A stretch of DNA of 64,000 nucleotides, taken from the NCBI GenBank assembly GCA_963840575.1, contig CAWIZP010000010.1, positions 137,485 to 201,484 of the forward strand, in the 5' to 3' direction. Source of the DNA: an uncultured Acidobacteriota bacterium. GTDB lineage: Bacteria; Acidobacteriota; Terriglobia; Terriglobales; Acidobacteriaceae. Shown piece by piece: positions 1,129 to 18,067 of this stretch; positions within the stretch are counted from its first letter, which is position 1, and every line of letters starts with the position of its first letter. The notes below the pieces were generated by a model. That model worked only from the letters and a program-made list of their open reading frames with translations. It did not search any database and was not told where the DNA came from. The translations under genes and the position numbers were made by a program.

Positions 1129-1719
1129 GTGGCCGACGGCAAAGATCTTCGAGAAGACATGCAGCGGATCGGAGGATTGGTTCAGGAGATCGAATCCATC
1201 GGCGATCCCGCGGTGCGAGCTGCCGCGAAGAATCTGATGCAATTGCTCATGGATTTGCACGGAGCTGCTCTGGAGAAAACCCTCGACATTGTGGCCGACG
1301 CCGGAGAGCCGGGCATGACCATCATCGACCGACTCGGCCGCGATTCGCTGGTGAGCAGCGTCCTGATTTTGTATGGGCTTCATCCTGAGGATCTCGAAAC
1401 CAGAGTCGTAAAGGCGGTAGATCGCGTGAGGCCGCAACTGCGCAAACAAGGTTGTGAACTGGAGTTGCTCGCCGTGACTGATGGAGCCATTCGACTGCGG
1501 GTTGAAACTGGTTTTCATACCTGCGGTTCAACCGCCAAAACTGTCCAGGCTACGCTGGAAGGCGCGATGTACGACGCGGCGCCCGATCTGACTTCCCTGA
1601 CGATCGAAGGTTTTGAAGATAAGCCTTCATCCGGATTTGTGGCTTTAGACAAATTAATGGGAAACGCCGGACAATTCATCTCCTCGCCAGTTGCGTTAGA
1701 GCCGCAAGGCGGCGACTAG
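1129..1719 (+). CDS. NifU/Nfu C-terminal-domain-like hydrogenase accessory protein
   Basis: GTG start 5 nt after AAGGAG. The segment VRPQLRKQGCELELLAVTDGAIRLRVETGFHTCGSTAKTVQATLE resembles the Nfu domain, but the CxxC reads HTCGST. Located directly after hhyL. Confidence 0.65.
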   Translation: MADGKDLREDMQRIGGLVQEIESIGDPAVRAAAKNLMQLLMDLHGAALEKTLDIVADAGEPGMTIIDRLGRDSLVSSVLILYGLHPEDLETRVVKAVDRVRPQLRKQGCELELLAVTDGAIRLRVETGFHTCGSTAKTVQATLEGAMYDAAPDLTSLTIEGFEDKPSSGFVALDKLMGNAGQFISSPVALEPQGGD

Positions 1720-1749
1720 GAACGATCGAACACTTTGGGATTCTGAATT

Positions 1750-2424
1750 ATGAGTGCCGGGCAATTTACGGGATCTACCGATGGATTCGGAGCGCTTCGC
1801 CAGTTCGCACGGCGCGAGCGGCAGCTCGAACGTTGCGAGTTGTGCAGTCTGGGTCTGCGGTCTGATCACCCGCATTTGCTCGAATTGGCGCAGCGCAAGC
1901 TCATATGCACCTGTGAACCTTGTGCGATTCTATTCAGCGGCCAGGGCGTGAAGTTCAAGCGAGTGCCTCGGCGAGTTTTATCTCTTCCCCGCTTCAACCT
2001 CAGCGATGCAGAGTGGAACGGTCTGATGGTCCCAATCAACATGGCTTTCTTTTTCAGGAACAGCCTCGAGGAACGTACGGTTGCGATGTATCCCAGCCCC
2101 GCTGGCGCGACCGAATCCCTGTTGGATATGGAGTCCTGGAATGATATCGCCCAGCGCAACTTGGTGCTAAGCACAATGGAATCGGATGTAGAAGCGTTGT
2201 TGGTCAACCGTCTCGGATACTCCCGCGGATATTCCGCGCCGGAGTACTATCTGCTGCCGATCGATGAATGTTACAAACTCGTCGGGCTGATTCGGATGCA
2301 TTGGAAAGGCCTCTCCGGAGGAACGGAAGTGTGGCGGGAATTGGGCGAGTTCTTTACCGGCTTGAAAGCGAAATCAGTGGAGATCAAAGAGGAAGCCAGC
2401 GCTCGAGAGAAATCTGATGCCTGA
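1750..2424 (+). CDS. hydrogenase-cluster conserved protein of unknown function (Cys-rich N-terminus; DUF5947-like from memory, unverified)
   Basis: 224-aa ORF with CELCSL...CTCEPC cysteine pairs. Its 3' end overlaps the next gene by 8 nt (ATGCCTGA at 2417-2424). Confidence 0.6.
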   Translation: MSAGQFTGSTDGFGALRQFARRERQLERCELCSLGLRSDHPHLLELAQRKLICTCEPCAILFSGQGVKFKRVPRRVLSLPRFNLSDAEWNGLMVPINMAFFFRNSLEERTVAMYPSPAGATESLLDMESWNDIAQRNLVLSTMESDVEALLVNRLGYSRGYSAPEYYLLPIDECYKLVGLIRMHWKGLSGGTEVWRELGEFFTGLKAKSVEIKEEASAREKSDA

Positions 2425-3079
2425 TTTGAGCTTCCAGGTCGAGGCAGTCGAGGTAGTGGCCAATGCAGCCTCTCCGCTGCTGGCCTTCAAACTGCGCCTG
2501 ACTGACGCCAACACTCAGCAGATCATTCATACTGTGGCACTCCGCTGCCAGCTCCAGTTGGAAGTAACGCGCCGTAAATACACACTCCAAGACCAGGAAC
2601 GGTTGCTCGATCTGTTTGGCGAGCCCAGCCGCTGGGGCCAAACTTTGCGCAGTCTTTTGTGGGCCCATGCCAATCTCGTAGTTCCTTCATTCACCGGGAC
2701 GACTGTAGTCGATCTTCCCGTTCCCTGCACCTTCGACTTCAACGTGGCTGCTACGAAATACTTCGATGGTCTGACTGATGGTGATGTCCCCATCTGCCTG
2801 CAATTCAGCGGAACAGTTTTCTACGCGAACCCGGACACGCACCTGCAGGTTGCTCCGATTTCCTGGGACAAGGAAGCGCGCTTCAAACTTCCGGTAAAAG
2901 TTTGGCGCGACATGATGGAGTCGTACTATCCCAACAGCGCATGGCTCTGCCTGCACAAGGACACTTTTAACCGCTTATATCAGTACAAACTTCGGCACGG
3001 CATTCCCACGTGGGAAGAAGTGATCGAGCGCGTCGTGCCGGTGCAAGTTGATCCAGTCGAGGAGACGGTGACGCAATGA
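2417..3079 (+). CDS. hydrogenase-cluster conserved protein of unknown function (DUF6084-like from memory, unverified)
   Basis: 220-aa ORF, coupled to the upstream gene (ATGCCTGA) and to the downstream gene (ATGA at 3076-3079). Confidence 0.6.
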   Translation: MPDLSFQVEAVEVVANAASPLLAFKLRLTDANTQQIIHTVALRCQLQLEVTRRKYTLQDQERLLDLFGEPSRWGQTLRSLLWAHANLVVPSFTGTTVVDLPVPCTFDFNVAATKYFDGLTDGDVPICLQFSGTVFYANPDTHLQVAPISWDKEARFKLPVKVWRDMMESYYPNSAWLCLHKDTFNRLYQYKLRHGIPTWEEVIERVVPVQVDPVEETVTQ

Positions 3080-4140
3080 ATCTTGCGACCGTGGAGAAGA
3101 TCGCGAAAGCCGTGTTGTACGAGGGATATATGCTTTATCCCTACCGACCTTCGTCGGTGAAGAATCAGCAGCGCTGGAATTTCGGCGTACTCTGCCCGCG
3201 ATCCTACAGCGAGATGCAAAACGGTAGCGAAGCTTGGACGATGCAGACCGAGTGTCTGCTTGAGGCCAACTCGCTGACCGGGATTGAAGTCCGGGTCCGA
3301 TTTCTGCAACTGGTGGCGCGAACTATCGGCGAATTAAAGACGCCAGTAGCCGAACTGTTACAGGGTGAAACACCAGACTTTCAACGAGTAGAGAAGCTCT
3401 CGGTGAATGGTCGCGCCTACGAGCCGTGGCAGGAAGCAGTCGAGCGGGAAGTCGTGCTGCCAGTTTTGAATATTGAAGCGCTGCGCCATACCGGGTTAAA
3501 GCGACCCTTTATTTTTCTTGAGGGAAAAGAGTTTGAGCCCCTGCGCGAGTCCGGCGGAGGGATTGTGGGCGTTCTTGTTCGGGAACGAAACAACCTCCAG
3601 GGTGAAGTGGAGCTTACCGCGACCCGGCTCGACGATGGCATCTTCAAAATAGGCGTGCACATTCGGAACACAACTCCTTTTGAAGTCTCGGATAATACCG
3701 GTCGCGAAAGTGCGTTGTTGAACGCCCTCGTATCGACCCATACTATCCTCGGCGTTCAGGATGGCCGCTTCGTTTCTTCACTGGCTCCCGCTGATGAAAT
3801 GAAAGAATTTGTTGGAAGCTGCAAGAATGTTGGAACGTGGCCGGTTCTCGTTGGCGAAGAAGGCGATCGCGATACGTTGCTCTCTTCGCCGATCATCCTC
3901 TACGACTATCCGCAAATCGCTCCCGAGAGCGCTGGTGACCTCTTCGACGGCACCGAAATTGACGAGATTCTCTCCTTGCGAATCATGACGCTCACGGATG
4001 AAGAAAAACGCGAGATGAGCCAGTCGGACGAGCGCGCCCGTCAGATGTTGGAGCGCACTGAGGCTATGCCGGTCGAACATCTCATGAAGTTGCACGGAGT
4101 CTTGCGAGGGCTGCGTCCCCTGAGGGAGGAGATCCGATGA
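3076..4140 (+). CDS. hydrogenase-cluster conserved hypothetical protein
   Basis: 354-aa ORF with ATGA overlaps at both ends (3076 and 4137). No catalytic motif recognised. Confidence 0.6.
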   Translation: MNLATVEKIAKAVLYEGYMLYPYRPSSVKNQQRWNFGVLCPRSYSEMQNGSEAWTMQTECLLEANSLTGIEVRVRFLQLVARTIGELKTPVAELLQGETPDFQRVEKLSVNGRAYEPWQEAVEREVVLPVLNIEALRHTGLKRPFIFLEGKEFEPLRESGGGIVGVLVRERNNLQGEVELTATRLDDGIFKIGVHIRNTTPFEVSDNTGRESALLNALVSTHTILGVQDGRFVSSLAPADEMKEFVGSCKNVGTWPVLVGEEGDRDTLLSSPIILYDYPQIAPESAGDLFDGTEIDEILSLRIMTLTDEEKREMSQSDERARQMLERTEAMPVEHLMKLHGVLRGLRPLREEIR

Positions 4141-4988
4141 ACGAATGGGAATGGCAACTGGTCGAAGAAAAAACTCCCGTCGATCATCTGGAAATCTGTG
4201 GAGTCGAAGTGAGAACCGGAAGCCGGGTGCGCCTGCGCCCCCGTCCGGGAGGCGATGTGATGGACATCGCGCTGGCGGGACAGACCGCAACTATCGAATG
4301 CATTGAACAGGACTATGAAGGCAAGCAGCACGTTTGCGTGGTCCTGGATAACGATCCCGGAAAAGATCTTGGTCTTCTGCGCCAGCCAGGCCACCGCTTC
4401 TTCTTCGACGCCGAGGAAGTCGAGCCGCTATCTGGCGCCGAGATTGCAGAAATCTCAGCCCTGCCAAAGAAGACCATCCTCGTAGCTGGCATCGGCAACA
4501 TTTTTCTCGGCGATGATGCGTTTGGTGTGGAAGTGGTGCGCCGTTTAGCCGAACGAAAATTGCCGGATGCCGTGCGTGTGGCCGATTTTGGCATCCGCGG
4601 CTTCGATCTAGCTTATGCCCTGCAGGATGGCTACGAAACTACAATCCTGGTGGATGCATGTCCGCATGGCGAAGCACCGGGAACTCTTTATGTGATCGAA
4701 CCCGATTTGAAATCATTGGATAGTCCGGAAGCTCCGCCTGCCGTCATAGAAGCTCATGCGATGAATCCCGAAAGCGTGCTGCGCATGGCGCACGCGATGA
4801 ATATTGAAGTTAAGAATGTACTGCTCGTCGGTTGCGAACCGGAAACGCTTGGCGGTGAAGAGGGTCGGATGGGACTTAGCTCGCCGGTTCAGACGGCGGT
4901 GGCAGAAGCTGTGAAGCTGGTAGAGTCATTGATCCAAAAAGTGATGGGCAAGAGCGCGCCCGATTCAACTCCACATTCAACCCAGTGA
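4137..4988 (+). CDS. hydrogenase maturation endopeptidase (HupD/HyaD family) with ~110-aa N-terminal extension
   Basis: Core motif KKTILVAGIGNIFLGDDAFGVEVVRRL, then FGIRGFDLAYAL and VDAC. Preceded in the same ORF by an unrelated ~110-aa segment. Confidence 0.85.
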   Translation: MNEWEWQLVEEKTPVDHLEICGVEVRTGSRVRLRPRPGGDVMDIALAGQTATIECIEQDYEGKQHVCVVLDNDPGKDLGLLRQPGHRFFFDAEEVEPLSGAEIAEISALPKKTILVAGIGNIFLGDDAFGVEVVRRLAERKLPDAVRVADFGIRGFDLAYALQDGYETTILVDACPHGEAPGTLYVIEPDLKSLDSPEAPPAVIEAHAMNPESVLRMAHAMNIEVKNVLLVGCEPETLGGEEGRMGLSSPVQTAVAEAVKLVESLIQKVMGKSAPDSTPHSTQ

Positions 4989-5024
4989 ATATCTTGCGTT
5001 AGTTGCGTTAATAAGGAGACTGCC

Positions 5025-5228
5025 GTGGCAATCGAAAAGAATGGTAACGGACTTAGTGATAGGGACACGCTATTCATGTTGAGCGGCGTGGCGCTAATAG
5101 TGTTCGGGGCGGGATTAATTCTTTCCAATCCAATCGCGAAACGATATCTCAGCCAGATCGGGATCGGCGATTTGGCTCAGGCTGCATTGCCGGACTTAGA
5201 TCGCTATTTGAAACTGCGGGCGATGTAA
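5025..5228 (+). CDS. small membrane protein (67 aa) ending AALPDLDRYLKLRAM
   Basis: GTG start 7 nt after AAGGAG. One hydrophobic helix (LFMLSGVALIVFGAGLILS). The stop lies 2 nt before the next ATG. Confidence 0.6.
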   Translation: MAIEKNGNGLSDRDTLFMLSGVALIVFGAGLILSNPIAKRYLSQIGIGDLAQAALPDLDRYLKLRAM

Positions 5229-5230
5229 CG

Positions 5231-5851
5231 ATGAGCCCGCCCGTGCACATGGCAGAGAGTCAGGGGGATGGCTTGTCCACAGTAGGAATGCCGCACACGA
5301 CAGTTCGCTACATAATCGATGGCAAGAACAGCAGGTTCACAGTGCAGGCATTCGCTACGGGGCTGCTTTCGACATTCGCTCATAACCCGACCATTGCGAT
5401 TCGTGATTTCGAAGGCGAGATCTGTTTCAGTCCCGAGGCTGTGGAGCACAGTTGGTTGCACTTGATGATCCATTCGGCTTCGCTTACCGTCACCGACGAC
5501 GTTCGCGAGAAGGATCGGGCCGAGATCAATCGCGCGATGCAAGAACAAGTTCTGGAATCAGATTCGTTCCCCGAGATTCTTTACGAATCCTCCGGCCTGT
5601 CTGCGAATAAGATCGGAGAAGGACAATACTGGGGAACGATGAACGGCGAACTCGCGCTGCACGGAGTTACACGGAGTCAGCCAGTCTCCGTGCGCATCGC
5701 AGCCAACGAAGACGTACTCCGCGCAACGGGTGATTTTTCGGTGCGCCAGAGCGACTATGAAATTCGTCCGGTCACCGCGGTTGGCGGAACGATCAAGCTT
5801 AAGGATGAACTCAAGTTTTCGTTCGATATCTCCGCCCGCAGGCAGACGTGA
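5231..5851 (+). CDS. YceI-like polyisoprenoid-binding family protein
   Basis: SRFTVQAFATGLLSTFAHNP...SDSFPEILYES...GELALHGVTRSQPVSVRI...DYEIRP matches the YceI domain pattern. The true start may be an internal Met. Confidence 0.8.
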   Translation: MSPPVHMAESQGDGLSTVGMPHTTVRYIIDGKNSRFTVQAFATGLLSTFAHNPTIAIRDFEGEICFSPEAVEHSWLHLMIHSASLTVTDDVREKDRAEINRAMQEQVLESDSFPEILYESSGLSANKIGEGQYWGTMNGELALHGVTRSQPVSVRIAANEDVLRATGDFSVRQSDYEIRPVTAVGGTIKLKDELKFSFDISARRQT

Positions 5852-5916
5852 ACCGGCCGTACAGTTTTTTGAAGATGGATGACAGAGCAAATCATGACGT
5901 TGCCGAGGGATGCCAC

Positions 5917-6237
5917 ATGTGTCTAGCCATACCAGGGAAGATTGTTGAGATTTCCCATGAGAATAGGGATTCCGCGCTTGTCGAAGTAATCGGCGTGCGC
6001 CGCCGAATTGACCTCGGCCTGCTACACGACGATAAGCCAGTGGAAGGTGATTGGGTGCTGGTTCACGTCGGTTTCGCCATGAGTAAGATCAGCGAACAGG
6101 ATGCCAATGACCAGATGAACACTCTCAGAATGCTGGGAGAGATTGACGGAGCAATGCAGGAAGTCAAAGGATACGGATTGGAAGATGATGTCGAAATTGC
6201 TGGTTCCGATTCTAAGTACAAGGAACCGATCCAATGA
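5917..6237 (+). CDS. hypC: hydrogenase assembly chaperone HypC/HupF
   Basis: Canonical N-terminus MCLAIPGKIVEI at the ATG at 5917 (the track ORF begins upstream at 5848). ATGA overlap with hypD. Confidence 0.9.
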   Translation: MCLAIPGKIVEISHENRDSALVEVIGVRRRIDLGLLHDDKPVEGDWVLVHVGFAMSKISEQDANDQMNTLRMLGEIDGAMQEVKGYGLEDDVEIAGSDSKYKEPIQ

Positions 6238-7361
6238 GATTTGTCGATGAGTTCCGGCAACCCGAGCTGATTTCGAAAACCGCGGAGGAAATTCGTCGCC
6301 TGGCTCGCACTGGACGGCATTACCGCATGATGGAAGTCTGCGGTGGACATACTCACGCTATCTATCGTTTCGGACTGAAAGATATCCTTCCCGAAAATAT
6401 CGAATTGATTCACGGACCCGGTTGCCCTGTATGCGTGCTTCCGATGGGAAGAATCGACGACGGCCTCGCCATCGCCCACGAGCCGGATGTTATCTTCGCC
6501 GCCTTTGGCGATATGATGCGTGTTCCGGGTACTCAAGGCAGTCCGCTCGAGCACAAGGCGCGAGGCATGGACGTTCGCATCGTATATTCACCCTCCGATG
6601 CGTTAAAGTTGGCCCGGCTTAATCCCGAGAAGCACGTGTTGTTTTTCGCCATCGGATTCGAAACCACCGCGCCCTCCACGGCGCTCACGATGATGCGCGC
6701 CAAGGCCGAACACATCCGCAACTTCTCGGTCTTCTGCAACCACGTCACAATCATTCCCGCGATCCGCGCGATTCTGGATTCTCCCGACATGCGACTGGAC
6801 GCCTTTATCGGCCCCGGCCACGTTTCCACCGTCATCGGTTGCCGGCCTTATGAATGGATCGCGCAAAACGAACGCAAACCGATCGTCGTTTCCGGTTTCG
6901 AGCCCCTGGATATGCTGCAATCCATTGTTATGTTGTTGCGCCAGTTGAAAGCCGGTGAGGCCAAGGTTGAAAATCAATACAAGCGCGTTGTTCCCTGGGA
7001 GGGCAACCGGGCTGCGCTTCGCGCCATGGCTGAGGTTTTTGAGTTGCGCCCGTACTTCGAGTGGCGCGGTCTGGGCTTCATCTCCCAATCGGCACTTCGC
7101 ATCAACAACCAGTATGCCGAGTTCGATGCCGAACAGCGCTTCCAAGTGCCTGGCATTCGAGTGACCGATCCTAAAGCCGCGCAATGCGGAGAGGTGTTGA
7201 AGGGCGTGCTGAAACCGCATCAATGTAAACTTTTTGGACGCGAGTGCACGCCCGAGCATCCTATTGGCGCACTCATGGTATCGACGGAAGGATCATGCGC
7301 CGCGTATCACAGCTACGAGCACCGCAAGGCAGCAATGGTAAGTCTGAGCTCGATCGCCTGA
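6234..7361 (+). CDS. hypD: hydrogenase formation protein HypD
   Basis: MRFVDEFR N-terminus, with GPGCPVCV, GFETTAP and GPGHVS motifs. Confidence 0.95.
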   Translation: MRFVDEFRQPELISKTAEEIRRLARTGRHYRMMEVCGGHTHAIYRFGLKDILPENIELIHGPGCPVCVLPMGRIDDGLAIAHEPDVIFAAFGDMMRVPGTQGSPLEHKARGMDVRIVYSPSDALKLARLNPEKHVLFFAIGFETTAPSTALTMMRAKAEHIRNFSVFCNHVTIIPAIRAILDSPDMRLDAFIGPGHVSTVIGCRPYEWIAQNERKPIVVSGFEPLDMLQSIVMLLRQLKAGEAKVENQYKRVVPWEGNRAALRAMAEVFELRPYFEWRGLGFISQSALRINNQYAEFDAEQRFQVPGIRVTDPKAAQCGEVLKGVLKPHQCKLFGRECTPEHPIGALMVSTEGSCAAYHSYEHRKAAMVSLSSIA

Positions 7362-8431: not shown

Positions 8432-9667
8432 ATGAAGATGAAGATTAACGCCTCATATCCAAGCAGGACCTCCTCAGATCCGACCTCGGCGACTTGCAAT
8501 CTCGCAAGCCGTATCGAAGAGCGGCTGCTCGAGCGGAACCAATTATTCGAGCGCTTTTTCTCTCGCGAGGCGCCGCGACTGGCCGAGGCCTGCCGTGAGA
8601 TGTCTGAGCGTTTCCTGCGCGGCGGCCGCCTGCTCGCCTTCGGTCGCGGTCCTTATGCCACCGATGCGCAACACGTTTCCGTGGAGTTTGTGCATCCGGT
8701 AATCGTGGGCAAACGCGCTCTGCCGGCCCTCGATCTTTCCGTTCTCTTTCGACCGTGGCTCGAAGCGATCCTTCATCCCGAAGACATCGTGGTGGGATTC
8801 AGCCCGCCAGAAGGCGATCCTGAAGTCTGGGCGACTCTCCAGGAAGCGCACCTGAAAGACGCGATGACGTTCGCTTTGCCGGGTCTCGAAGGTTCTTACG
8901 CGGTTGGGGCAGCCACGCAAGATCCGTTCATGCATCAGGAAATGATCGAGATCCTGTATCACACTCTATGGGAAACAGTGCACGTGTTCTTCGAGCACCG
9001 CGAATTAGGCCATAATGTCGGCGCCTCTGGCTTTCTCTATCCATTTCTGGGAACGGAAAAACAGGGTACTGAGGACATTGCAGCCGAGGTTGCCGCTTCC
9101 ATCTTAATGAAGGCGCAAGATGATGCCAGGCTGCGCGCGCAAGTCGCGGGGGAAAAGGCGGAGCAAATCGCTAATAGTGCTCTTGCGATTCATGAACGCC
9201 TGCGCCGCGGCGGCAAACTCATAATCTTCGGCAATGGAGGCTCCGGTACCGATGCGAACGACTTTGCTATTGACTGCGTGCTTCCGCCGCCCGGGTATGA
9301 ATCCGTTCCGGCCGTATCGCTATCGCTCGAACCCGCGAACATTACAGCCGTCGCCAACGATATTGGTACCGACGCCATTTTCCTTCGTCAGTTGATCGCG
9401 CAAGCTCGTCCTGAAGATGTTGCCATTGGCATCTCTACCAGCGGAGGGTCGCGCAACATCATTGCGGCGCTCGAGGAAGCTAGCAAGCGCAGTCTGCTCA
9501 CTGTCGCGCTGCTGGGCTATGATGGTGGCGAGATCAAGCGCAAGCAACTCGCGGATTTTCCCATCGTTGTGAACTGCGACTATATCCCCCGTATTCAGGA
9601 GGTCCAGGCCTCCATCTACCACGTCATGCGCGAAGCGCTGGAGGTGCTGGCGCGTGGGCAAGCTTGA
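8432..9667 (+). CDS. tandem SIS-domain protein (two GmhA/phosphoheptose-isomerase-like halves)
   Basis: First half has LLAFGRGPYATDAQHVSVEF. Second half has LIIFGNGGSGTDANDFAIDC...ANDIG...GISTSGGSRNIIAALEEA. Both fit the SIS/GmhA pattern. Confidence 0.75.
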   Translation: MKMKINASYPSRTSSDPTSATCNLASRIEERLLERNQLFERFFSREAPRLAEACREMSERFLRGGRLLAFGRGPYATDAQHVSVEFVHPVIVGKRALPALDLSVLFRPWLEAILHPEDIVVGFSPPEGDPEVWATLQEAHLKDAMTFALPGLEGSYAVGAATQDPFMHQEMIEILYHTLWETVHVFFEHRELGHNVGASGFLYPFLGTEKQGTEDIAAEVAASILMKAQDDARLRAQVAGEKAEQIANSALAIHERLRRGGKLIIFGNGGSGTDANDFAIDCVLPPPGYESVPAVSLSLEPANITAVANDIGTDAIFLRQLIAQARPEDVAIGISTSGGSRNIIAALEEASKRSLLTVALLGYDGGEIKRKQLADFPIVVNCDYIPRIQEVQASIYHVMREALEVLARGQA

Positions 9668-13292: not shown

Positions 13293-14111
13293 ATGATCAG
13301 TTTTGTCTCCATCCTCGCGGTCGGATTTTTCCTTGGGATGCGCCACGCCACCGATCCCGATCATGTCATCGCGGTCACAACTATCGTCAGCAATCAGCGG
13401 AGCACTGTGGGGTCGGCTCTGATCGGCGCTTTCTGGGGATTGGGCCACACGGTCACTATTCTGGTCGTAGGCGCCGGAATTATTCTCTTCAATCTCGTGA
13501 TCCCGGTGAAGCTCGGTTTGAGCATGGAATTGTCCGTCGCCGGGATGCTGATCATCCTCGGGCTCATGAACATTGCCGGATTTCTGCATACCATGGCTGA
13601 ATCAATGCCGACCGAATCACTGGCGAGCGGCGGAGAAAAGTTCATCCACGCCCATCCTCATAGTCACGGCGACTACACGCATAATCATTCGCACGTTCAT
13701 CGGCATGAGGGTCACTCTCACTCAATCGATTCCCCGTCGTTGGGATGGATGGATCGCGCATTTGGTAGAACCGGGATGTATCAATACTTTCGGCCCCTGG
13801 TGGTGGGGATTGTTCATGGCCTCGCCGGCTCGGCGGCTGTGGCTTTGCTGGTCTTGAGCACAATCCGAAACGTTCACTGGGCGGTTGCGTATTTGCTGGT
13901 ATTCGGCGTGGGCACGATAGCGGGGATGATGCTAATCACCATGAGCATCGCTTCCGCATTCACAATGGTAGGCAAAGGTCGGAAGAAATTTTCCCGCCGG
14001 CTGGCATTAGCTTCGGGATTGCTTAGTCTTGGTTTCGGTATTTTCGTCGCTTACCAGATCTGCTTCGTGAACGGACTCTTCACTACGCATGCGCAATGGA
14101 TTCCGCATTAG
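13293..14111 (+). CDS. nickel/cobalt permease (NiCoT/UreH-like) with His-rich loop
   Basis: Signature RHATDPDHVIAV (HxxxxDH) and GLGHT. Multi-TM profile. Loop is HAHPHSHGDYTHNHSHVHRHEGHSHS. Directly follows hypB. Confidence 0.8.
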   Translation: MISFVSILAVGFFLGMRHATDPDHVIAVTTIVSNQRSTVGSALIGAFWGLGHTVTILVVGAGIILFNLVIPVKLGLSMELSVAGMLIILGLMNIAGFLHTMAESMPTESLASGGEKFIHAHPHSHGDYTHNHSHVHRHEGHSHSIDSPSLGWMDRAFGRTGMYQYFRPLVVGIVHGLAGSAAVALLVLSTIRNVHWAVAYLLVFGVGTIAGMMLITMSIASAFTMVGKGRKKFSRRLALASGLLSLGFGIFVAYQICFVNGLFTTHAQWIPH

Positions 14112-14782
14112 ACGGCGATAGGAAGCCGCCGCTTCGTTGTGTTCCGTGCTCGAAGCTTCCCTTGAGGTCGAGCACCCCCGAGTATCAATTCGCACAGATG
14201 GTCGACAAAGTCCGCTGTCAGATTGTCATGCCGAATTAGAAACCGCATGTAAATCGGCCCGTACAATGAATCGAGAATCAAATCCATGTCCACGTCTTCG
14301 GGCAGTTCGCCTCGCCGAATCCCACGTTGAAGCGTGGCGTAAGCCTCTCTGCGTCTTGGCCAAAGGAAACGCTCGCGGAAAGCTGCGATCAGATTTCTAT
14401 CGCTCTGCCCGCCACCCAGCAGCGCAGAAACGATGCGCCCACGGCTGCTCCGAAACACTTTAACGAGTTGACGCATCTGTTGGCTCATGTCCGTGGAGAC
14501 CGAACCCGTGTCGGGGAAGTGCAATTTCCGCGTGGTGCTGCTAGCGAAAGCATCCGCGATGAGGGCGGCCTTGTCGGGCCACCAGCGGTAAACCGTCGCC
14601 TTGCCCACATTGGCCTGGGCTGCGACCTCCTGAATGGTCAGATGGGCAAAACCATTCTTGCCCAGAAGCTTCAATGCGCTGCGCAAGATTGCCTGGCGAG
14701 ACTCTTCACTGCGCGGCCGCCCCGGAGAGCGTGCTCTGGTGACCCCGCCGTGACTACCATTGCCATTGGGCAGGTGGCGCAT
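14108..14782 (-). CDS. TetR/AcrR family transcriptional regulator
   Basis: HTH segment ILRSALKLLGKNGFAHLTIQEVAAQANVGKATVYRWWPDKAALI. Divergent from the RND pump. Confidence 0.9.
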   Translation of the reverse strand: MRHLPNGNGSHGGVTRARSPGRPRSEESRQAILRSALKLLGKNGFAHLTIQEVAAQANVGKATVYRWWPDKAALIADAFASSTTRKLHFPDTGSVSTDMSQQMRQLVKVFRSSRGRIVSALLGGGQSDRNLIAAFRERFLWPRRREAYATLQRGIRRGELPEDVDMDLILDSLYGPIYMRFLIRHDNLTADFVDHLCELILGGARPQGKLRARNTTKRRLPIAV

Positions 14783-14816
14783 AGCGTTACCTTACCATAT
14801 AATCGAAGCACAGATT

Positions 14817-14846
14817 TAGAATCCGATACGGATAGTATCGAATCTA
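14817..14846. promoter_or_regulatory. imperfect palindrome, candidate TetR operator in the divergent tetR/RND intergenic region
   Basis: TAGAATCCGATAC-GGATA-GTATCGAATCTA with core CGATAC-N5-GTATCG. A TATAAT hexamer lies at 14798-14803 on the + strand. Confidence 0.45.
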
Positions 14847-14914
14847 GTTTGTCTTCAGCCAGCCTTGTACCATCTATACACGTTCTTGTCGCTTGCAGGA
14901 GTAGCGCCTAACAA

Positions 14915-17900
14915 ATGTGGATTGTTGCATTAGCGCTAAGACGGCCCTACACATTCGTGGTGATGGCGCTCGTCATCATTATTCTGACCCCGATTACCAT
15001 ACTGCGAACTGCCACGGACATCTTCCCGAGTATCGACATTCCGGTAGTTTCGGTGGTTTGGTTTTATACGGGTATGTCGCCTCTGGATATGGCCGACCGC
15101 ATCGTCGCCAACTCCGAGCGTGGCATTACTACGACGGTCAATGATATCGAGCACATGGAGTCGCAGTCGGTGTATGGCCTGGGCGTCATCAAAATTTTTT
15201 TTCGCCCAGGTACGAATGTTCAGGGAGCCATCGCGCAGATTACGGCGATCGCACAGACCACGGTACGTGGTTTGCCCCCTGGCACCACGCCGCCATTGAT
15301 TATTTCTTACAGCGCTTCTACCACGCCTATTGTTCAGCTTGGCTTGAGCAGCAAAACATTGCCGGAACAGCAACTCTTCGATCTGGGCCAGAACTTTCTC
15401 CGAAACTTCCTGGCTACAGTACCGGGCGCAGCTACTCCATATCCTTACGGGGGAAAGATTCGCCAGATTCAAGTCGATCTCGACTTGCCGAAACTGCAGG
15501 CTTATGGGCTGCAGCCGAACGACATCGTCAATGCTGTTAACGCGCAGAACATTATTCTCCCAAGCGGCACCATCAAGATGGGCTCGCTCGAATACAACGT
15601 GGAGATGAACGGAACGCCGGCGACTATTCCGGAATTGAACGACCTCCCGGTTAAGACGAGCAACGGCTCTACTCTGTACATGCGCGATGTCGCCCACATC
15701 CGCGACGGCTTCGCGCCGCAGACCAACATCGTGCGCCAAGACGGGAATCGTGGCGCGCTGATGTCAATTTACAAGAACGGAAATGCGTCGACGTTGCAGA
15801 TTGTCGCCGGAGTCAAGAACATTGTTCAGCAAGCCGCCCAAGCGCTGCCGCCGGAATTAAAAGTCACTGCGCTGTTTGACCAGTCGCTGTTCGTGCGGGC
15901 TTCGATCTATGGCGTGTTGCGCGAAGGTTTGATCGCGGCGGCTCTAACTGCCGTCATGATCTTAATCTTTCTCGGCGATTGGCGTCCCACGATCGTTATT
16001 TCGATTTCCATCCCGCTTTCCATTTTTGTTTCGATCATTCTGCTGGGCACCATAGGCCAAACCATCAACATCATGACGCTCGGAGGGTTGGCGCTCGCCG
16101 TTGGCATCCTGGTCGACGACGCCACCGTCGAAATTGAAAACATCGAGCGGAACCTTGCCATGGGCAAGGAGATGAAGCAGGCCATTCTCGACGGTGCGCA
16201 ACAGATCGCTGTTCCTGCCTTCGTCTCCACACTCAGCATCTGCATCGTTTTTGTACCCATGTTCTTCCTGACCGGCGTCGCGAAATTCCTGTTCGTGCCG
16301 CTGGCTGAGGCGGTTAGCTTTGCCATGCTGGCAAGCTATTTGCTCTCGCGAACTCTAATCCCGACGCTTGTGATGTACATCATGCGCGGACACGAGCATC
16401 GCTCGGAAACTGGCAAGACATTCCTGGGCCGTTTTCAGCGCGGCTTCGAGCGCAAATTTGAAGAGTTCCGCCGCGGTTACGAGGGCCTGCTCGAAACCAC
16501 TCTCGAGCATCGCGGCATCTTCATGGTTTGCTTTCTGGCCTTTTGCATCCTTTCGCTCGGCCTGTTTTCATTCCTGGGACAAGATTTCTTCCCGCAAGTC
16601 GACGCGGGTCTGCTGCGGCTGCACGTGCGTGCGCGCCCCGGTTTGCGCGTCGAAGAGACAGCGCGGCTCTGCGATGAAGTTGAAGCTTCTCTTCGCCAGG
16701 AAGTCCCAAGTGGCCAGCTGCAGACCATTCTCGACAACATCGGCCTGCCCAACTCAGGGATCAATCAATCCTACAGCTCGAACGGAACTATTGGCAGTAG
16801 CGACGCCGAGATTCTGATCGCTCTCGACCCGGAGCATCATCCTCCTACCGCCGGACTCATGCGGCATCTGCGCGAAGTATTGCCGCAACGATTTCCGGGC
16901 GTGGAGTTTTTCTTCCAGCCGGCCGATATCGTTACGCAAATTTTGAACTTCGGCTTGCCCGCGCCCATCGATGTTCAGGTAGTGGGCACCGACATGAACA
17001 GCAGCTACCAGATCGCGCAGCAAATCGCGAACAAGATGCGGCACATTCCCGGCACCGCCGATGTGCATGTGCAGCAGTTGCTTTCCTTGCCTACCCTCCA
17101 CATGGATATCGAACGCACGCGGGTCACTCAAGTTGGGCTCACAGCGCGGGATGTGGCACAGAGCGCATTGGTTTCGCTGAGCGGAAGCTTTCAGACATCG
17201 CCAAATTTCTGGCTGAATCCGAAGAATGAAGTGACCTACCAGGTGGCGGTGCAGTCGCCGCAATATCGCCTGACCAATCTGCAAGACCTGTTGAATATTC
17301 CGGTGATTTCGCAGCAAGGCCCGCAGTTGATGAGCAATCTGGTGCAGATGTCACCTGTCACGCGGCCCGCTACCGTGAATCACTACAATGTGCAGCCGGT
17401 CATCGATGTGTATGCCAGCACCCAGGATCGCGACCTGGGCGCAGTGGCTGCCGATACCGATAAAGTGATTAAGAGCTTCAATGGCCACTTGCCTCGCGGC
17501 ACCCACATTGTAGTGCGAGGTCAGGTCGCTACCATGCGCTCGTCGTTCATTGGTTTAGGTGCAGGGCTGGCGGGCGCGATTCTGCTGGTTTACTTGCTGA
17601 TCGTCATCAACTTTCAGTCGTGGCTCGATCCTTTTATTATTATCGCTGCGTTGCCCGGCGCTTTGGCGGGAATCTGCTGGTTCCTGCTGCTCACTCATAC
17701 CACGTTAAGTGTTCCATCTCTCACCGGCGCGGTCATGTGCATGGGGGTTGCGACCGCCAATTCCATTTTGATGGTGAGTTTTGCGCGCGAACAAATGGAT
17801 GAAGGAATTCCGGCAGCAAAAGCCGCAGTCGCGGCTGGCTACACGCGCGTGCGTCCCGTGCTAATGACGGCTTTAGCCATGATCATCGGCATGGTCCCGA

Positions 17901-18067
17901 TGGCATTGGGATTTGGCGAAGGCGGCGAACAGAATGCGCCCCTCGGGCGCGCAGTGATCGGCGGCTTGCTGTTTGCCACCGTGGCCACTTTGTTTTTCGT
18001 TCCGAGTGTATTTGCCATCTTTCATAGCCGGCGCGAAGCCAGGCTGGCGCGCGAACAACAAACGTAA
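14915..18067 (+). CDS. RND efflux transporter permease (AcrB/HAE1-like)
   Basis: 1050 aa with 12-TM RND architecture and the typical N-terminus RRPYTFVVMALVIIILT. Confidence 0.93.
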   Translation: MWIVALALRRPYTFVVMALVIIILTPITILRTATDIFPSIDIPVVSVVWFYTGMSPLDMADRIVANSERGITTTVNDIEHMESQSVYGLGVIKIFFRPGTNVQGAIAQITAIAQTTVRGLPPGTTPPLIISYSASTTPIVQLGLSSKTLPEQQLFDLGQNFLRNFLATVPGAATPYPYGGKIRQIQVDLDLPKLQAYGLQPNDIVNAVNAQNIILPSGTIKMGSLEYNVEMNGTPATIPELNDLPVKTSNGSTLYMRDVAHIRDGFAPQTNIVRQDGNRGALMSIYKNGNASTLQIVAGVKNIVQQAAQALPPELKVTALFDQSLFVRASIYGVLREGLIAAALTAVMILIFLGDWRPTIVISISIPLSIFVSIILLGTIGQTINIMTLGGLALAVGILVDDATVEIENIERNLAMGKEMKQAILDGAQQIAVPAFVSTLSICIVFVPMFFLTGVAKFLFVPLAEAVSFAMLASYLLSRTLIPTLVMYIMRGHEHRSETGKTFLGRFQRGFERKFEEFRRGYEGLLETTLEHRGIFMVCFLAFCILSLGLFSFLGQDFFPQVDAGLLRLHVRARPGLRVEETARLCDEVEASLRQEVPSGQLQTILDNIGLPNSGINQSYSSNGTIGSSDAEILIALDPEHHPPTAGLMRHLREVLPQRFPGVEFFFQPADIVTQILNFGLPAPIDVQVVGTDMNSSYQIAQQIANKMRHIPGTADVHVQQLLSLPTLHMDIERTRVTQVGLTARDVAQSALVSLSGSFQTSPNFWLNPKNEVTYQVAVQSPQYRLTNLQDLLNIPVISQQGPQLMSNLVQMSPVTRPATVNHYNVQPVIDVYASTQDRDLGAVAADTDKVIKSFNGHLPRGTHIVVRGQVATMRSSFIGLGAGLAGAILLVYLLIVINFQSWLDPFIIIAALPGALAGICWFLLLTHTTLSVPSLTGAVMCMGVATANSILMVSFAREQMDEGIPAAKAAVAAGYTRVRPVLMTALAMIIGMVPMALGFGEGGEQNAPLGRAVIGGLLFATVATLFFVPSVFAIFHSRREARLAREQQT

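Follow-up and report, generated by a model that had tools for sequence, protein, structure and literature searches.

Here, we analysed a 64,000-nucleotide (nt) stretch of DNA from an uncultured Acidobacteriota bacterium (contig CAWIZP010000010.1; hereafter the window), in which the best explanation of positions 5025–5851 is an accessory module of two genes that belongs to an acidobacterial group 1h [NiFe]-hydrogenase, an enzyme that scavenges atmospheric H2. The first gene encodes a single-pass membrane microprotein of the DUF6893 family, and the second encodes a YceI-like lipocalin. Within a group 1h (Hhy-type) locus, both open reading frames (ORFs) are flanked by the hydrogenase endopeptidase gene and hypC, and a preliminary description of this DNA had correctly placed them inside the hydrogenase/hyp operon, with the endopeptidase upstream and hypC downstream. 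The main biological sink of atmospheric H2 is considered to be the group 1h hydrogenases. How Hhy associates with the membrane and couples to quinone, a gap to which the same description had pointed, is a genuine open question in the literature (10.1101/769216, PMC6883350). The elements of the module are the following (aa, amino acids):

5013–5018, + strand: Shine-Dalgarno-like AAGGAG, 6 nt before GTG 5025, read from the sequence
5025–5228, + strand: 67-aa single-pass membrane microprotein, DUF6893 long form (ORF; PF21833 match of 24.4 bits)
5070–5126, + strand: predicted transmembrane helix, about residues 16–34, LFMLSGVALIVFGAGLILS (hydropathy and AlphaFold2; near-invariant in homologues)
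5130–5150, + strand: internal P-I-A-K-R-Y-L segment, found in the long (Terriglobia) form only and not in short forms (alignments)
5190–5225, + strand: extreme C-terminal motif PDLDRYLKLRAM, family-defining, invariant in 18 aligned homologues and followed by the stop codon
5231–5851, + strand: YceI-like lipocalin gene of the signal-less 'H-x-P' clade, 206 aa from ATG 5231 (Pfam domain at nt 5315–5833)
5273–5275, + strand: TTG, likely the true YceI start, giving a 192-aa product (AGGGGGA at 5262–5268; homologue starts)

Both ORFs are real genes under purifying selection. The microprotein gene begins at GTG 5025, 37 nt after the endopeptidase stop codon, and ends with TAA at 5226–5228; the ORF, the Shine-Dalgarno-like site and the hydropathy all agree with its first description as a 67-aa single-helix protein with a GTG start and an AAGGAG site. 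Database searches returned 1472 homologues for the small ORF and 2667 for the YceI ORF, and the named sources of both were mostly Candidatus Sulfotelmatobacter. Among aligned relatives, the small protein is 79–93% identical, and its ORF displayed a crude ratio of nonsynonymous to synonymous change (pN/pS) of 0.07–0.5 against 14 loci. A single hydrophobic stretch was identified (best 15-aa window at residues 19–33, mean Kyte-Doolittle value of 2.47), and the AlphaFold2 model, which is of low confidence (predicted local distance difference test score, pLDDT, of 64.5), contains a helix at residues 9–34 followed by short helices. Lysine and arginine are commoner on the C-terminal side of the transmembrane helix, which predicts an N-out/C-in orientation and hence a cytoplasmic location for the cationic C-terminal tail, the side on which Hhy lies.

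Comparison with the Pfam profile of DUF6893 (PF21833) gave 24.4 bits for the window protein itself, against a cutoff of 24.6 and over profile positions 19–32 only; all 18 aligned homologues match DUF6893 (E ≤ 1.6e-5), many of them with a precomputed PF21833 match. The window protein possesses the family architecture, namely one transmembrane helix and a terminal PD(L/I)xRY(L/I)(K/R)(L/I)RxM, and this terminal motif forms the C-terminal end of short DUF6893 proteins from seven other taxa and is common to proteins of Cupriavidus, Kitasatospora, Mycobacterium, Streptomyces, Spectribacter and Blastocatellia. With its 67 aa, the window protein falls outside the 30–46 aa of the short forms and is a long variant, the extra N-terminal and linker segments of which are conserved within Terriglobia. 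Within the long microprotein, the P-I-A-K-R-Y-L segment at 5130–5150 resembles P-D-L-D-R-Y-L at 5190–5210, of which short forms have a single copy, and the resemblance suggests an internal duplication of the tail motif. A metagenomic microprotein ORF (locus L135, 1951–2286) runs 7 codons beyond the usual terminal Met (…RYFKLRAMSEPKRR) and is the sole example seen of residues beyond the motif.

Sampling across phyla, which drew on a plasmid collection and contig look-ups, revealed that the family extends well beyond Terriglobia. Unannotated gaps of plasmid-borne group 1h loci contain 33–39-aa ORFs with a short N-terminus, one helix and a terminal PD(I/A)(K/R)RY(L/I)(R/K)IRxM followed by the stop codon, located directly 3' of the endopeptidase gene in Cupriavidus necator pHG1 and Kitasatospora and directly 5' of it on a Mycobacterium intracellulare plasmid. 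A profile search with these short forms (using an alignment headed by a 40-aa row) retrieved proteins named 'DUF6893 family small protein' by NCBI. Further DUF6893 genes lie 3' of the endopeptidase gene in Streptomyces, Spectribacter hydrogenooxidans, Paraburkholderia, a Blastocatellia metagenome-assembled genome (MAG) and a Burkholderiales-like metagenome contig, and 5' of it in a chromosomal Mycobacterium locus; the Terriglobia locus L081 has a short form between a NicO gene and hhyS. Altogether, 10 of the 11 short-form contexts fall within group 1h loci, in Pseudomonadota, Actinomycetota and Acidobacteriota. DUF6893 is a general cross-phylum component of group 1h loci, of which the window holds a Terriglobia-specific long form, and, because the short forms sit in group 1h loci of three phyla, it is a component of the hydrogenase locus and not a YceI-specific partner. 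The suggestion that the small protein serves as a tether dedicated to YceI is thereby contradicted, as DUF6893 occurs without YceI in the group 1h loci of Proteobacteria and Actinobacteria. Our literature search found no article naming DUF6893, and no paper tying DUF6893 or YceI to group 1h hydrogenases.

The YceI-like identity first proposed for the downstream ORF was borne out at the levels of both sequence and predicted fold. The ORF matches PF04264 with 51.2 bits (cutoff 23.7) over residues 29–201, and a profile built from 24 of its homologues matches the YceI-like protein BcnA (PDB 5IXH) with an E-value of 3.8e-5. The AlphaFold2 model (pLDDT 74, predicted template-modelling score 0.68) is a predicted eight-stranded antiparallel β-barrel, for which the top 13 Foldseek matches in the PDB are all members of the YceI family (E 4e-9 to 2e-5, target-normalised template-modelling scores of 0.66–0.78), including BcnA/BcnB, TT1927b, Escherichia coli YceI, Pseudomonas syringae 3Q34 and Saccharophagus degradans 2X34. 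Cytochrome b6 matches from a single-sequence PDB search (E 0.1–0.8) were taken as chance, since the profile and fold searches point to YceI. ATG 5231 does lie 2 nt past the microprotein stop codon, as had been described; however, the homologues are mostly 192 aa long and start at the position of TTG 5273, and the first 14 residues of the 206-aa ORF are unconserved. The product is therefore probably 192 aa long, and the two genes may be separated by a spacer of ~44 nt rather than 2 nt; in most relatives the corresponding gap is ~37–50 nt. No export signal was detected on the YceI protein, the highest 12-aa hydropathy in its first 40 residues being 0.58, and it is predicted to be cytoplasmic.

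This predicted location sets the protein apart from a sister clade. A metagenome scan queried with an alignment of both YceI paralogues (see below) and the Blastocatellia orthologue returned 80 loci of the subfamily, 72 of which have hydrogenase/hyp neighbours, the remaining 8 belonging to an exported clade. Every H-x-P copy (80, and 4 partial) is without a hydrophobic N-terminus and lies beside hydrogenase/hyp genes. None of the 8 H-x-H copies has hydrogenase neighbours; 7 have a signal-like N-terminus and 1 is ended by the contig edge. Since the H-x-P/H-x-H split tracks the neighbouring genes, relocation to the cytoplasm appears to go with the hydrogenase link, and the hydrogenase-linked YceI is, as judged from its sequences, a distinct, putatively cytoplasm-relocated clade of an otherwise exported family. 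The H-x-P clade was found here only in Acidobacteriota: no YceI gene is present in the Proteobacterial or Actinobacterial group 1h loci examined, and Blastocatellia have one. The H-x-H proteins (L107, L115, L138, L139, L141, L154, L162 and L163) are 45–49% identical to the window protein and contain an AH(D/N)H motif and a signal-like or lipoprotein-like N-terminus; in L115, L154 and L162, the exported YceI gene adjoins a convergent SIS-domain gene.

The coupling of the two genes was assessed in a sample of 83 loci, of which 80 were the closest species-level genomes by the fragment of the hydrogenase large subunit HhyL (HhyL identity of at least 89%, labelled almost all as Terriglobia or Acidobacteriota) and 76 could be scored. 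Both genes lie between the endopeptidase gene and hypC in 68 of the 76 Terriglobia loci and neither does in 8, while no locus has one alone. The preliminary description had made its case depend on whether the pair is conserved beside hhy/hyp genes in relatives, and within Acidobacteriota this conservation is strong. The 8 pair-less loci are scattered over at least 5 separate places of a neighbour-joining tree built from four locus proteins, and therefore the two genes were lost jointly and repeatedly. A tandem second full-length YceI paralogue (~186–213 aa) was identified in 22 of the 68 loci, flanked by the microprotein gene and by the orthologue of the window YceI. These two-copy loci include L010 (~15110–15690), L013, L019, L021, L027 and 17 more; degraded remnants of a second YceI occur in three others (L003 9808–10062, L020 15352–15489 and L026 15525–15725), and one-copy and two-copy states are intermixed on the locus tree. 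We also considered whether the long Terriglobia insert is needed for pairing with YceI and rejected the idea, as Blastocatellia pair a short 46-aa form with YceI. In a Blastocatellia-like metagenomic locus (L098 7329–7976), the space between DUF6893 and YceI is occupied by the gene of a 215-aa membrane protein of the DUF1440 family, and the spacing is similar in L097, L116 and L129. In Spectribacter hydrogenooxidans, an OmpW-family gene with a signal peptide follows DUF6893 inside the hydrogenase cluster (L088 8174–8824); we rejected it as a barrel analogue of YceI, as the signal peptide gives it the look of an outer-membrane protein.

These distributions bear on whether the pair has any hydrogenase-specific function at all, or whether the two are passenger genes carried by linkage in a horizontally spreading operon. 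Their absence from 8 of the 76 loci and the absence of YceI from other phyla could be read in this way, as could the HhyL fragment, which is 86% identical over 330 aa to the large subunit of C. necator H16 pHG1 and suggests a horizontal spread of the locus. We nevertheless consider mere carriage very improbable: the small ORF is under purifying selection and highly conserved among relatives, in three phyla DUF6893 has stayed at the side of the endopeptidase gene although the hyp order was rearranged, the YceI clade occurs only beside hydrogenase/hyp genes and its exported sister clade never does, and the tandem YceI duplication has been kept in 22 loci.

The positions of the two genes could also be taken to indicate that DUF6893 and YceI act in hydrogenase biogenesis and not in catalysis; they might, for example, bring the nascent enzyme or the endopeptidase/Hyp machinery to the membrane, or serve as chaperones of a hydrophobic surface. 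DUF6893 adjoins the endopeptidase gene, on its 3' side in most loci and its 5' side in Mycobacterium, and the short form of L081 sits between the NicO nickel transporter gene and hhyS. YceI, in turn, lies directly 5' of the first hyp gene throughout (hypC in Terriglobia, hypF in Blastocatellia-type loci), and it stays with hypCDE (L145 and L149) or hypF (L092 and L156) once split from the structural genes. However, little can be concluded about function from a place at an operon junction, and the structural genes of group 1h loci usually adjoin the hyp genes and are in any case probably expressed together with them. Moreover, we know of no [NiFe] cofactor assembly step in the Hyp pathway that needs an isoprenoid-binding barrel or a membrane. 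The data are compatible with a role in maturation or assembly, which we nevertheless regard as unlikely.

Instead, we tentatively propose, as a possible reading that may well need revision, that the microprotein docks the hydrogenase at the membrane and that the YceI barrel handles menaquinone. The DUF6893 microprotein would provide a docking site on the cytoplasmic face of the membrane for a hydrogenase machinery otherwise lacking transmembrane segments. The YceI barrel would bind a polyprenyl lipid, most plausibly menaquinone, and keep it at the membrane surface, where the held quinone could be reduced by the hydrogenase or by an iron–sulfur partner (the HhyE-type protein) before returning to the pool. 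In support of the lipid-binding step, which the preliminary description had also invoked, ubiquinone-8 or octaprenyl lipids are documented cargoes of YceI lipocalins, which have a membrane redox protein as a linked or fused partner (PMC9113575), and BcnA binds menaquinone tightly (PMC5350466). On the side of the enzyme, mycobacterial Hhy is menaquinone-dependent and membrane-associated but without predicted transmembrane regions (10.1101/769216), hhy operons encode no cytochrome b (PMC6883350), and no quinone site of the enzyme has been described (10.1101/769216, PMC6883350); likewise, no cytochrome b gene was found in positions 1–14.8 kb of the window, where all genes were assigned by Pfam, or in the related loci L001–L003. 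The Huc hydrogenase provides a precedent, in which a quinone-extracting scaffold gives access to menaquinone (PMC10017518). Two facts make docking combined with menaquinone handling plausible, namely quinone binding by YceI lipocalins and the membrane association of Hhy in the absence of known transmembrane segments; the case for it is built on the genetic linkage, the predicted cytoplasmic tail and barrel, the known YceI ligands, the gap in the Hhy literature and the HucM precedent. The observation made in the preliminary description is confirmed, and its interpretation is partly supported.

The same ligand chemistry admits another function, in which a quinol or lipophilic antioxidant held by the cytoplasmic YceI quenches lipid peroxyl and oxygen radicals around the O2-exposed hydrogenase and the membrane during starvation, as in the periplasmic BcnA (YceI)–LcoA system, with no electrons fed to respiration. 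BcnA, LcoA and PsrA protect against membrane lipid peroxidation, and the quencher in the proposed model is YceI-bound ubiquinol (PMC9113575); a response of YceI genes to stress, oxidative and other, is on record (PMC5350466, PMC8472277). A glutaredoxin gene is present in the same hydrogenase locus, and a module that is dispensable in 8 of 76 loci and missing from other phyla would fit a protective add-on. However, the locus contains no cytochrome b561 or aldehyde reductase partner, the characterised BcnA system is periplasmic whereas the hydrogenase-linked clade has specifically lost its export signal, and the strict hydrogenase/hyp neighbourhood of the clade is tighter than would be expected of a general stress protein. 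An antioxidant function is compatible with the data, too, but seems doubtful to us.

Several observations weigh against docking and menaquinone handling. The pair is missing from the 8 Terriglobia loci in which the remaining locus is intact, so there the module is either dispensable or replaced from elsewhere in the genome. Since the group 1h loci of other phyla do without YceI, the barrel is not a general route to quinone. YceI occurs without DUF6893 in some metagenomic loci: it directly follows the endopeptidase gene in L099 and L161, heads a YceI-hypCDE arrangement after an unrelated gene in L145 and L149, and forms YceI-hypF in L092 and L156. Where operons are split, YceI goes with the hyp genes and not with the structural genes. 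A 30-aa DUF6893 protein (L172 3112–3204) is encoded outside hydrogenase loci, the sole such context among the 11; its neighbours are a 70-aa ORF of unknown function and a 521-aa FAD_binding_3 (aromatic-ring-hydroxylase-like) gene. The structure models are of moderate (YceI, pLDDT 74) or low (microprotein, 64.5) confidence, and membrane docking, the identity of the ligand, contact with the hydrogenase and a role in electron transfer are what we infer from genes and predictions. Furthermore, the C. necator enzyme was reportedly purified as a soluble protein by Schafer and colleagues in 2013.

An extension of the docking and menaquinone proposal would make DUF6893 an overlooked membrane subunit of group 1h hydrogenases in all carrier phyla, and the acidobacterial YceI a cytoplasmic adaptor that presents menaquinone between the enzyme or HhyE and the membrane. 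We think it improbable that this holds in full. If it did, DUF6893 would account for the membrane association of Hhy even though it has no predicted transmembrane segments, and DUF6893 with YceI would be a second, independent answer to the problem that Huc solves with HucM. The module makes the question of how Hhy reaches the membrane testable, chiefly through the microprotein, the carriers of which include tractable hosts such as mycobacteria and C. necator H16 (pHG1). For Acidobacteriota, a phylum dominant in soil, the module also includes a putatively cytoplasm-relocated member of a quinone-binding lipocalin family. Should the link fail, a DUF family will still have gained a genomic context, and a hydrogenase-specific YceI clade will have been defined as new.

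Comparison with known systems revealed both likenesses and clear departures. The window microprotein resembles the short DUF6893 of C. necator H16 pHG1 (a 33-aa ORF) in its transmembrane helix, its terminal motif and its position at the side of the endopeptidase gene. In contrast to the short forms (30–46 aa), it is twice as long and additionally possesses an N-terminal extension of acidic/polar character and a cytoplasmic insert of 20 aa in which P-x-x-x-R-Y-L is repeated. The YceI protein shares its Pfam family and predicted eight-stranded barrel with the YceI/BcnA lipocalins of known structure (PDB 5IXH, 1WUB, 1Y0G, 3Q34 and 2X34), although its sequence identity to the solved members is only 11–18%. 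The YceI/BcnA–LcoA system offers the precedent of a lipid/quinone-binding barrel encoded beside, or fused with, an electron-transfer membrane protein (PMC9113575). Unlike BcnA-type proteins, which are periplasmic or secreted, the window YceI is without an export signal and predicted to be cytoplasmic, and its neighbours are a single-helix microprotein and a hydrogenase, with no adjacent or fused cytochrome b561.

HucM of the group 2a Huc of Mycobacterium smegmatis is likewise a small accessory of an atmospheric-H2 hydrogenase that has no cytochrome b, and it provides access to menaquinone (PMC10017518). The likeness may be one of functional analogy only, as HucM is a coiled-coil scaffold that forms a tube and not a β-barrel or a transmembrane microprotein; its function was demonstrated by structure and mass spectrometry, whereas the window module is known here from genes and predictions. 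The cytochrome b anchors HyaC/HoxZ and the C-terminal transmembrane helix of the small subunit are possible analogues of DUF6893 in the attachment of hydrogenases to the membrane (PMC6883350). Unlike these anchors, DUF6893 is a separate polypeptide with one helix, lying on the cytoplasmic side with a non-exported enzyme, and it cannot itself carry electrons because it has one helix and no haem ligands. Finally, YjlC, a helical membrane plugin which accompanies NDH-II in Bacillus in quinone-transporting filaments, is described as another small accessory that gives a peripheral respiratory enzyme access to quinone (PMC13433803, PMC13524794); by that description it is comparable, and its architecture is unrelated to that of DUF6893 or YceI.

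The genes around the module were assigned as follows:

4–1002, + strand: 3' part of HhyL, the group 1h large subunit gene (C-terminal DPCLPCGVH motif; NCBIfam Ni-dependent hydrogenase large subunit matches)
1129–4140, + strand: accessory genes conserved in group 1h loci (Pfam)
1129–1719, + strand: NifU-like/HhyE-type protein
1750–2424, + strand: DUF5947
2417–3079, + strand: DUF6084
3076–4140, + strand: unnamed 354-aa protein
4137–4988, + strand: HycI/HupD-type maturation endopeptidase (PF01750 and TIGR00072 match residues 111–269)
4137–4466, + strand: extra ~110-aa N-terminal domain of the endopeptidase
5917–6237, + strand: hypC, the first hyp gene (PF01455/TIGR00074 match from residue 24 of the ORF starting at 5848)

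The small subunit of the hydrogenase lies beyond the window edge, and the locus was assigned to group 1h by its 1h-clade large subunit together with the NifU-like, DUF5947 and DUF6084 accessory genes (Pfam and synteny). The order of these accessory genes is common to the C. necator, Kitasatospora, Mycobacterium, Streptomyces, Paraburkholderia and Blastocatellia loci. HypC has its real start at ATG 5917 (MCLAIPG...) and not at GTG 5848, and it is followed by hypD, hypE, a double-SIS gene, glutaredoxin, hypF, hypA, hypB and a NicO-like transporter (to 14111). A scan of positions 4000–7000 found no promoter-like or terminator-like sites on the + strand between the endopeptidase gene and hypC, and co-transcription from the endopeptidase gene through hypC is weakly indicated.

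Two loci with 92% HhyL identity (L017 and L018) come from MAGs labelled Chitinophagaceae and Candidatus Binatus; these labels, like the 86% identity to C. necator, could reflect binning errors or recent horizontal transfer. The ~110 N-terminal residues of the endopeptidase are 60% identical to the C-terminal end of an upstream 476-aa hypothetical protein in C. necator (L084 9645–11072) and share 62% identity with a free-standing ORF of 107 aa in Blastocatellia (L089 7137–7457), and this domain is therefore a mobile module fused to differing neighbours by phylum. The SIS-domain gene of the window (8432–9667) is about double the usual size: it encodes 411 aa, in which two stretches are matched, compared with 216–235 aa in Proteobacterial and Blastocatellia loci. 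Directly 3' of the hydrogenase locus, positions 14108–18067 contain a divergent TetR-family regulator and a 1050-aa RND (AcrB-type) efflux pump, and the same TetR/RND neighbours are also found in L001 and L002.

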